DNA of 64,000 nucleotides, taken from the NCBI RefSeq assembly GCF_056746865.1, contig NZ_CM163382.1. One strand, 5' to 3'. A program made the translations under genes and the position numbers. Shown in pieces: positions 41,161-44,608 of this stretch; positions within the stretch are counted from its first letter, which is position 1; each line of letters opens with the position of its first letter. The notes beneath the pieces are model-generated. The model did not search any database. It was not told the DNA's origin and saw nothing but the letters and a program-made list of their open reading frames with translations.

Positions 41161-42322
<1,162 letters not shown>

Positions 42323-42502
42323 GCCCGACAGAATTAAATGAGATTGCAGGAAAACTCGGTTAACGGAGTGATCGAGTTAACATTGTTAAGTTAAATATTG
42401 GTTTCAACTCCGATTTACATGGTTGCCGTGTTGTTAAATTGTACAAAGATGTTATAGAAACAAAATGTAACATCTCTATGGACACGCACACGGATAACAA
42501 CT

Positions 42503-44608
42503 ATGAACAAATCAGGGAAATACCTCGTCTGGACAGTGCTCTCTGTAATGGGAGCATTTGCTCTGGGATACATTGCTTTAAATCGTGGGGAACAGATCAA
42601 CGCGCTGTGGATTGTGGTGGCGTCGGTCTGTATCTATCTGATCGCTTACCGTTTTTATGGGCTGTATATCGCCAAAAATGTGCTGGCGGTTGACCCGACG
42701 CGTATGACGCCAGCGGTGCGCCATAACGACGGGCTGGACTATGTGCCGACGGACAAAAAAGTGCTGTTCGGTCACCATTTTGCGGCCATTGCCGGAGCAG
42801 GTCCGTTGGTTGGGCCGGTACTGGCGGCGCAAATGGGTTACCTGCCAGGGATGATCTGGCTGCTCGCTGGGGTGGTTCTCGCCGGTGCGGTGCAGGATTT
42901 CATGGTGCTGTTTGTTTCTACGCGCCGCGATGGTCGCTCGCTGGGTGAGCTGGTCAAAGAAGAGATGGGGCCAACCGCCGGGGTGATTGCGCTGGTGGCC
43001 TGCTTTATGATCATGGTCATTATCCTTGCAGTACTGGCGATGATCGTGGTGAAAGCCCTGACCCATAGTCCGTGGGGAACGTATACCGTTGCGTTCACCA
43101 TTCCGCTGGCGCTGTTTATGGGGATCTACCTGCGTTATCTGCGTCCGGGGCGTATTGGCGAAGTGTCGGTGATTGGCCTGGTATTCCTGATTTTCGCCAT
43201 TATCTCTGGCGGCTGGGTGGCAGAAAGTCCGACCTGGGCACCGTACTTTGATTTTACGGGTGTGCAGCTGACCTGGATGCTGGTGGGTTACGGCTTCGTG
43301 GCGGCGGTGCTGCCAGTGTGGTTGCTGCTGGCTCCGCGCGACTACCTCTCAACCTTCCTGAAAATCGGGACTATCGTCGGTCTGGCGGTAGGCATTTTGA
43401 TTATGCGCCCGACGCTGACCATGCCTGCGCTAACTAAATTTGTCGATGGCACAGGCCCGGTATGGACCGGTAACCTGTTCCCGTTCCTGTTTATCACCAT
43501 CGCTTGTGGCGCGGTGTCTGGCTTCCATGCGCTGATCTCTTCCGGTACCACGCCGAAGATGCTGGCGAACGAAGGGCAGGCGTGTTTTATCGGCTACGGC
43601 GGGATGTTAATGGAATCCTTCGTAGCGATTATGGCGCTGGTTTCCGCCTGTATCATCGATCCGGGTGTGTACTTCGCCATGAACAGCCCGATGGCGGTGC
43701 TGGCTCCGGCAGGGACGGCGGATGTGGTTGCTTCTGCCGCGCAGGTGGTGAGTAGCTGGGGCTTTGCGATTACCCCGGATACGCTAAACCAGATTGCCAG
43801 CGAAGTGGGTGAACAGTCGATCATTTCCCGTGCGGGCGGTGCGCCGACCCTGGCGGTGGGGATGGCCTACATTCTGCACGGTGCGCTGGGCGGCATGATG
43901 GATGTGGCGTTCTGGTATCACTTCGCCATTCTGTTTGAAGCACTGTTTATTCTGACGGCGGTGGATGCAGGTACGCGTGCCGCGCGCTTTATGTTGCAGG
44001 ATCTGCTGGGCGTGGTGTCTCCGGGCCTGAAACGGACCGATTCACTGCCTGCTAACCTGCTGGCAACGGCGCTGTGCGTACTGGCGTGGGGCTACTTCCT
44101 CCATCAGGGTGTGGTCGATCCGCTGGGCGGTATTAACACCTTGTGGCCGCTGTTTGGTATTGCCAACCAGATGCTGGCAGGGATGGCGCTGATGCTCTGT
44201 GCTGTGGTGCTGTTCAAAATGAAACGTCAACGTTACGCCTGGGTGGCGCTGGTACCAACGGCCTGGCTGCTGATTTGTACCCTGACCGCAGGCTGGCAGA
44301 AAGCGTTTAGCCCGGATGCGAAAGTCGGCTTCCTGGCGATTGCTAACAAGTTCCAGGCAATGATCGACAGCGGCAATATTCCATCGCAGTATACTGAGTC
44401 ACAACTGGCGCAACTGGTGTTCAACAACCGTCTTGATGCCGGGTTAACCATCTTCTTTATGGTGGTCGTGGTGGTTCTGGCACTGTTCTCGATTAAGACG
44501 GCACTGGCGGCATTGAAAGAGCCGAAGCCAACGGCGAAAGAAACGCCGTATGAGCCAATGCCGGAAAATGTCGAGGAGATCGTGGCGCAGGCGAAAGGCG
44601 CGCACTAA
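42503..44608 (+). CDS. cstA: Carbon starvation protein CstA (peptide/pyruvate transporter family)
   Basis: 701-aa ORF MNKSGKYLVWTVLSVMGAFALGYIALNRGEQINALWIVVASVCIYLIAYRFYGLYIAKNVLAVDPTRMTPAV... Confidence 0.97.
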   Translation: MNKSGKYLVWTVLSVMGAFALGYIALNRGEQINALWIVVASVCIYLIAYRFYGLYIAKNVLAVDPTRMTPAVRHNDGLDYVPTDKKVLFGHHFAAIAGAGPLVGPVLAAQMGYLPGMIWLLAGVVLAGAVQDFMVLFVSTRRDGRSLGELVKEEMGPTAGVIALVACFMIMVIILAVLAMIVVKALTHSPWGTYTVAFTIPLALFMGIYLRYLRPGRIGEVSVIGLVFLIFAIISGGWVAESPTWAPYFDFTGVQLTWMLVGYGFVAAVLPVWLLLAPRDYLSTFLKIGTIVGLAVGILIMRPTLTMPALTKFVDGTGPVWTGNLFPFLFITIACGAVSGFHALISSGTTPKMLANEGQACFIGYGGMLMESFVAIMALVSACIIDPGVYFAMNSPMAVLAPAGTADVVASAAQVVSSWGFAITPDTLNQIASEVGEQSIISRAGGAPTLAVGMAYILHGALGGMMDVAFWYHFAILFEALFILTAVDAGTRAARFMLQDLLGVVSPGLKRTDSLPANLLATALCVLAWGYFLHQGVVDPLGGINTLWPLFGIANQMLAGMALMLCAVVLFKMKRQRYAWVALVPTAWLLICTLTAGWQKAFSPDAKVGFLAIANKFQAMIDSGNIPSQYTESQLAQLVFNNRLDAGLTIFFMVVVVVLALFSIKTALAALKEPKPTAKETPYEPMPENVEEIVAQAKGAH

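Follow-up and report, generated by a model that had tools for sequence, protein, structure and literature searches.

The short spacer between entH and cstA in E. coli carries a perfect inverted repeat close to the cstA start codon, and this raises the question of whether the symmetry is a regulatory element in its own right and, if so, whether it would act as DNA or as leader RNA. In the 64,000-nucleotide stretch of DNA analyzed here (hereafter the window), the spacer covers the 180 bp from 42323 to 42502, between the entH stop codon (42320-42322) and the cstA ATG at 42503, and is 100% identical to many complete genomes whose annotation gives its neighbors as EntH, a proofreading thioesterase, and CstA, a pyruvate/proton symporter (coding sequence 42503-44608 on the plus strand, 701 aa, pyruvate/H+ symporter, stop codon 44606-44608). 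A sequence-only reading had described an 8-bp perfect inverted repeat with 13 intervening nucleotides about 40 bp 5' of the cstA ATG, and both its coordinates and its complementarity were verified: The left arm AGATGTTA (42447-42454) and the right arm TAACATCT (42468-42475) are 100% complementary across a 13-nt spacer, and the repeat is centered 42 bp 5' of the start codon. The repeat is real, yet statistically unremarkable by itself, given that 7.4% of dinucleotide shuffles of the 180-bp spacer yield a perfect 8-nt inverted repeat with 0 to 20 nt between the arms and that the 64-kb window holds 59 such repeats (27 +/- 6 in shuffles).

The same reading had placed the palindrome in the cstA leader, which does not agree with the mapped transcription start site (TSS). 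Kim et al. 2012 (PMC3415461), in their supplementary TSS table, have a single entry for cstA, at NC_000913.2 position 629081, supported by 43 reads and giving a 36-nt 5' UTR, and the upstream sequence listed there, ending in GAAACAAAATG, matches the window such that transcription starts at G42467 on the plus strand; the portion of these tables examined holds no K. pneumoniae cstA start. Counted from G42467, the repeat spans -20 to +9, with the left arm at -20 to -13, the right arm at +2 to +9, and the -10 element plus discriminator occupying the palindrome “loop.” Consequently, only the right arm is transcribed, and no leader RNA hairpin can form from this start. The core promoter has the layout of a sigma-70 promoter, with a -35 hexamer TTGTTA (42431-42436, plus strand, 98-100% conserved), an 18-bp spacer, a -10 hexamer TAGAAA (42455-42460, plus strand, -12 to -7, positioned by its geometry relative to the mapped start and conserved at a mean of 1.64 bits), and 6 nt to G42467. 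Both hexamers are conserved, and the distance between them is 18 bp in E. coli and 17 bp in most other genera. A scan of the region for strict consensus sigma-70 promoters and terminators gave no match, as is expected for a promoter that depends on CRP or another activator. The inverted repeat is promoter DNA that brackets the -10 element and the start site of the CRP-dependent sigma-70 promoter of cstA and is not leader RNA.

A different start is implied by Table S6 of Park et al. 2013 (PMC3798270), which places an ArcA box (629002-629022) at -44 to -24 from the EcoCyc TSS; this start would correspond to window position 42432 and a 71-nt leader, in conflict with 42467 and its 36-nt leader. 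We favor 42467 because it was obtained by direct sequencing, because 42432 falls within the conserved -35 hexamer, because no promoter-like hexamers are found 5' of 42432, and because a conserved CRP-like site further upstream is in class I helical phase with 42467 only (-92.5 versus -57.5 for 42432). The choice between the two starts bears on the idea that a longer leader, beginning around 42432, would fold the repeat into an RNA hairpin that affects translation or stability, maybe by alternating with a pairing to the spacer between Shine-Dalgarno sequence and AUG. With both arms transcribed, such a hairpin would be stable (-9.5 kcal/mol, z = -5.4), and the left arm could pair with 42494-42510 (82% complementary). 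However, TSS sequencing found one cstA start, the arms do not covary among orthologues, no Rfam family matches, and the literature places the cstA GGA motifs outside stem-loops. We rejected the hairpin, along with a riboswitch reading, on the position of the start, the absent covariation, and the lack of an Rfam match, and consider it highly improbable.

Several other features of the sequence around the start were recorded alongside. An inverted repeat of 17 nt (42439-42455 against 42494-42510, 82% complementary) joins the region of the left arm to the spacer between Shine-Dalgarno sequence and AUG plus the start codon, and would be relevant only to a transcript starting 5' of 42439; the right arm UAACAUCU is nearly repeated in the spacer that precedes the AUG, AUAACAACU. 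The perfect 9-bp palindrome ATGTAACAT (42465-42473) is centered on +3, and an ATG-TAA start-stop there is cut by the mapped start, while ATG-TTA-TAG (42449-42457) lies in the left arm, 5' of the start. At the other end of the gene, Kim et al. 2012 (PMC3415461) list a 5' end at NC_000913.2 position 631232 (44 reads) that is assigned to ybdD with a 173-nt UTR. It corresponds to window position ~44618, 10 nt past the cstA stop codon, with a repeat-like, G/C-rich stretch following, and may have arisen by processing of a cstA-ybdD transcript instead of from a promoter.

Upstream regions of 80 cstA loci from different Enterobacteriaceae species were aligned, with column statistics calculated on 81 sequences and pairing analyzed on the 76 distinct orthologue sequences. 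Four conserved footprints are apparent upstream of cstA: the CRP-like site AGTGATCGAGTTAACA (mean 1.45 bits per position), GTTGTTAAAT at the -35 element (1.69 bits), a 27-bp block TGTTATAGAAACAAAATGTAACATCTC at 42450-42476 (-17 to +10; 1.50 bits, versus 0.93 bits for the whole upstream 150 nt), and the ribosome-binding site ACGGA (1.49 bits). The sequence between these footprints varies nearly freely, at 0.23 bits in the spacer between -35 and -10 and 0.43 bits mid-leader. Within the block, the discriminator (1.60 bits) and positions +1 to +9 (1.53 bits) are about as conserved as the -10 hexamer itself, and conservation drops to 0.43 bits over the next 13 nt of the leader. The palindrome does not follow this pattern: The right arm lies inside the strongly conserved block, while the left arm is only partly conserved, with no conservation of its outer 3 nt (0.16 bits) and an innermost base, 42454, that is A in 39 and C in 41 of the 81 sequences opposite a partner T that is 98% conserved. 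This innermost pair is broken in 38 of 76 sequences, no compensatory changes were found in the inner five arm pairs among the same 76, and the arms are paired in 70.3% of alignment cells compared to 68.4% after shuffling, that is, without covariation. Judged by this alignment, the conserved unit is the block from -17 to +10, not the palindrome. The palindrome exists because two separately constrained sequences chance to be complementary in the Escherichia/Citrobacter lineage, and by the same comparison it appears as an incidental, lineage-restricted symmetry in the core promoter rather than a functional unit in itself. Neither the block nor the motif GWWACA-N4-GWWACA has further copies beyond chance in the 64-kb window. 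The block could be conserved owing to contacts with RNA polymerase, to the mRNA 5' end, or to another regulator that binds TGTTA/GTTACA.

The repeat also varies within E. coli. UPEC-245U and bR_120 carry the right-arm substitution C42474A, which leaves a perfect repeat of only 6 bp, and in strain Z1323HEC0399 a foreign segment joins at ~42453, within the left arm, such that TGTTGATA replaces the left arm and TAGAAACAAAATGTAACATCT is kept. Three sampled E. coli strains carry G42425A and T42440C, position 42427 is T in MG1655 but C in the window, and an O157:H7 strain shows no difference from the window over 42400-42520. Of 5418 matching E. coli genomes, 34 lack coverage of the full-length query at this locus. 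The entH-cstA spacer of Z1323HEC0399 measures 844 bp (L081 1007-1850) compared to 180 bp in the window and contains an extra gene of 140 aa on the opposite strand with a match to Pfam DUF7832 (E = 2.8e-36).

Downstream of the repeat, the leader carries the second element to which the sequence-only reading had drawn attention, a GGA next to the start codon that would fit a CsrA site. The sequence ACGGATAAC indeed lies directly before the start (42490-42498), with the GGA at 42492-42494 (-11 to -9 from the A of the ATG), and the attribution to CsrA is borne out by its context. The motif ACGGA (42490-42494, plus strand, +24 to +28) combines the Shine-Dalgarno core with a CsrA motif, its GGA ends 8 nt before the AUG, and it has the A(N)GGA context, the transcribed position in the 36-nt leader, and the overlap with the Shine-Dalgarno sequence that are typical of CsrA sites. 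Its columns are conserved at 83% (A), 69% plus 26% (C or T), 95% (G), 100% (G), and 91% (A), so that the GGA itself is 91-100% conserved in an A(C/U)GGA context. Neighboring GGA motifs are AUGGA 12 nt upstream (42478-42482, plus strand, +12 to +16) and, in the coding region, AGGGA 24 nt (42514-42518) and CUGGA 39 nt (CTGGA in the DNA, 42529-42533) downstream; counted from the A of the ATG, these motifs lie at -25, +12, and +27, within reach of a CsrA dimer. As summarized in PMC7652899 and PMC4066749, Dubey et al. 2003 described up to four CsrA sites in cstA, one of them over the Shine-Dalgarno sequence, with bound CsrA blocking the 30S subunit; in the portions of the CsrA literature consulted, ATGGA is a primary CsrA motif type and CTGGA a secondary site from the cstA study. 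The cstA ACGGA is therefore not merely similar to the known case of Shine-Dalgarno occlusion by CsrA but is the described system itself, of which the palindrome is no part. The candidate upstream site AUGGA, identified by its sequence, is poorly conserved outside Escherichia and Citrobacter and overlaps the R3 pairing region of GcvB, where pairing was verified by the compensatory mutation G-22C (G-22 corresponds to 42481). Folding of the leader plus early coding region was no better than that of shuffled sequences (z = +0.83) and put no GGA into a hairpin loop, which is the high-affinity form, in agreement with the literature placing these motifs outside stem-loops. The GGA before the cstA ATG is a Shine-Dalgarno/CsrA site that was already known.

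Which protein, if any, recognizes the promoter DNA around the start? The sequence-only reading had noted that the palindrome does not fit the CRP consensus, and we agree: CRP was rejected as its ligand, the TGTGA-N6-TCACA symmetry not being found there, and the best CRP match of the region is the conserved CRP-like site at 42367-42382. This site matches TGTGA-N6-TCACA at 8 of 10 positions and is centered at -92.5, a class I distance. Its center lies at -90.5 to -92.5 in 68 of 73 orthologues, and this distance, constant to within one base pair, ties the block at the start site to the CRP-dependent promoter. The arrangement resembles class I CRP promoters with a distal site in helical phase and weak -10 and -35 elements; the palindrome is not the CRP site, which lies ~87 bp 5' of the palindrome center. 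Consensus scans for canonical DeoR, GntR, FNR, Lrp, IHF, PhoP, CpxR, and GacA/UvrY sites stayed at chance level, and matches to NsrR (15/22) and TyrR (10/12, 42402-42419) were weak and did not coincide with the palindrome in a suitable geometry, so that we rejected all of these. For these scans, we used strings that we take to be the respective consensus sequences, except for the RstA box, the string of which is confirmed in the literature. The TyrR-like sequence TTTCAACTCCGATTTACA (42402-42419) reaches 10/12 against the TyrR box consensus, TGTAAA-N6-TTTACA, as do 2.7% of random stretches, and lies in a weakly conserved region.

CRP and Fis are established regulators of cstA, ArcA is known from one genome-wide study, and a “second regulator” was postulated by Schultz and Matin and later by Gasperotti et al. 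The literature that we searched for cstA paired with OmpR or SELEX named no further DNA-binding regulator, Hwang et al. 2018 contains no cstA promoter data, and the “cstA-H” genes of the Cpx literature are unrelated CS3 fimbrial genes. In the study of Park et al. 2013 (PMC3798270), cstA belongs to the direct ArcA regulon, is up 21.5-fold in an arcA mutant under anaerobic conditions, and loses sigma-70 occupancy anaerobically; the ArcA site overlaps the RNA polymerase footprint in 52 of 66 repressed promoters, for which promoter occlusion was proposed, and the best box per 200 bp alone is reported. For cstA, this is the box AAGTTAAATATTGGTTTCAAC (Tables S1/S4) at 42388-42408 on the plus strand, -79 to -59 from the TSS of Kim et al. 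2012. The ArcA ChIP-seq peak at window position ~42385 is weak (2.6-fold, one replicate), lies ~60-90 bp 5' of the palindrome arms, and has a resolution that cannot separate the upstream box, the -35 region, and the arms (PMC3798270). A second ArcA genome-scale data set, Federowicz et al. 2014, has no entry for cstA in the part of its supplements that we consulted.

We rebuilt the 10-bp direct repeat (DR) matrix of ArcA from 65 published two-repeat sites with cstA excluded (site mean 7.6 bits), and this matrix gives 10.0 + 2.8 bits for the published cstA box compared to the published 10.0 + 3.0. It also predicts a second canonical ArcA-type box, TGGTTGCCGTGTTGTTAAATT, at 42420-42440 on the plus strand (-47 to -27), which overlaps the -35 element, consists of TGGTTGCCGTG and TTGTTAAATT as an 11-bp direct repeat, scores 12.8 bits in E. 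coli, and is absent from Park et al. 2013. This predicted box is far better conserved than the published one: Across orthologues its median is 13.9 bits, and 92% of them score 9 bits or more, compared to just 25% for the published upstream box. It was probably dropped from Park et al. 2013 by the rule of one box per 200 bp. Considering its better conservation, this rule, and the location of ArcA sites over the RNA polymerase footprint in repressed promoters, it seems probable that the box predicted at -35, and not the published upstream box, is the conserved ArcA repressor site of cstA.

Single ArcA-type DR elements are also found in both palindrome arms, as ATGTTATAGA in the left arm (10.1 bits, plus strand) and as ATGTTACATT on the minus strand of the right arm (10.3 bits). 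Across orthologues, the left arm reaches at least 7 bits in just 30% and, in about half of the genera, reads TGTTC and no longer scores as an ArcA-type element, whereas the right arm has a median of 10.3 bits and at least 7 bits in 85%; conservation among the DR elements is seen for the right arm and for the element over the -35, which has a median of 11.3 bits. These elements cluster at the promoter: The 64-kb window has 25 DR elements that score 9 bits or more, and 6 of them fall within 110 bp of the cstA promoter, whereas 3000 shuffles of the spacer gave 0.32 on average and 3 at most. With TGTTA elements of 10-11 bits over the -35, the -10, and +1 of a gene for carbon scavenging, the region resembles the multi-repeat operators of ArcA-P over sigma-70 promoters (PMC3798270). 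It differs from canonical ArcA-P operators in that the arms are in inverted orientation, with 18 bp between their zero positions, instead of forming an 11-bp direct repeat, in that the adjacent conserved pair has a 10-bp rather than 11-bp period, and in that the published box lies further upstream. This pair is the tandem GAAACA-N4-GTAACA at 42457-42472 (plus strand), read on the minus strand as ATGTTACATT and TTGTTTCTAT with 10.3 + 6.2 bits, and the best 11-bp ArcA box in -25 to +15 has a median of 6.8 bits and reaches at least 9 bits in 3% of orthologues. Since the tables of Park et al. 2013 (PMC3798270) include auxiliary repeats, both at 10-bp spacing and on the opposite strand, ArcA-P may nevertheless contact the palindrome arms.

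Taken together, the explanation that we favor, with roughly even confidence, is that the repeat is part of a promoter DNA region bound by ArcA-P at the -35 box and the TGTTA elements, while the GGA is the Shine-Dalgarno/CsrA site. Under anaerobic or reducing conditions, ArcA-P would bind the -35 box and would also touch the TGTTA elements that flank the -10 and +1, and its occupancy would shut out RNA polymerase, giving the published 21.5-fold repression. Bound at the GGA of the Shine-Dalgarno sequence, CsrA blocks the ribosome in a separate, post-transcriptional step.

It is also conceivable, though unlikely, that no dedicated regulator acts at the arms, with RNA polymerase contacts and the mRNA 5' end keeping the block and the palindrome arising as a chance by-product. 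A repeat that is within chance expectation, lacks covariation, is polymorphic in E. coli, and encloses the -10 and the start site is consistent with this, as is the fact that several sRNAs and CsrA act on the short cstA leader. However, the known sRNA and CsrA contacts map 3' of +12, the discriminator and the first nine transcribed positions match the -10 in conservation before the steep drop over the following 13 nt, and polymerase contacts leave the clustering of TGTTA elements unexplained. Being as conserved as the CRP site, the block from -17 to +10 might instead be the operator of the postulated “second regulator,” for example of the OmpR family (10-bp tandem GAAACA/GTAACA) or the DeoR family, which we regard as rather unlikely; if true, such an operator would make pyruvate uptake responsive to a further signal besides cAMP, Fis, and redox state. 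The OmpR-family version, in which a regulator such as OmpR or RstA represses at the start site through the tandem GAAACA-N4-GTAACA, draws on a likeness to OmpR/RstA tandem sites: The two G-W-W-A-C-A units have a 10-bp period that suits such sites better than the 11 bp of ArcA, and 42456-42469 on the minus strand match the RstA box TACATNTNGTTACA at 10 of 12 positions, as reached by 1.7% of random stretches of the window. This match is post hoc and emerged after many consensus sequences had been tried. The level of cstA mRNA is up in an S. Typhi ompR mutant according to the literature, but this effect may be indirect because the OmpR-dependent sRNAs OmrA and OmrB repress cstA. No binding of OmpR or RstA to cstA is reported in the literature searched, and neither protein was captured on the promoter fragment, so that we consider this version quite unlikely.

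The palindrome itself would be an operator if a symmetric dimeric or oligomeric repressor of the DeoR family or another kind bound TGTTA...TAACA two helical turns apart, in which case it would be the site of the “second regulator.” The arm centers are 21 bp apart and therefore on the same face of the helix. The deo operator, which we take to be TGTTAGAATTCTAACA, shares the outer TGTTA/TAACA letters and an internal AGAA with the arms and likewise lies over a -10. Its half-sites are, however, 6 nt apart instead of the 13 nt at cstA, and no stretch of the fragment matches this 16-bp operator at more than 9 of 16 positions, a score attained by 76% of random stretches, so that the full operator is matched at chance level. 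Gasperotti et al. found DeoR enriched ~2-fold on a 300-bp fragment of the cstA promoter at each of three time points, and YgbI, another DeoR-family protein, at two of them, but deletions of deoR and ygbI left PcstA-lux unchanged in the same study. With the palindrome unconserved across orthologues and variable within E. coli, a symmetric operator appears very unlikely.

The result is a modest refinement of a promoter known to be controlled by CRP, ArcA, Fis, and CsrA, and no general principle is altered. It concerns a textbook carbon starvation gene that encodes one of the pyruvate importers of E. coli and the transcriptional shut-off of which is partly known. The promoter elements of cstA are now placed on the mapped start, and a predicted, conserved ArcA-type box is located over the -35 element. 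The 27-bp conserved block over the -10 and +1, for which no published regulator accounts, offers a concrete target.
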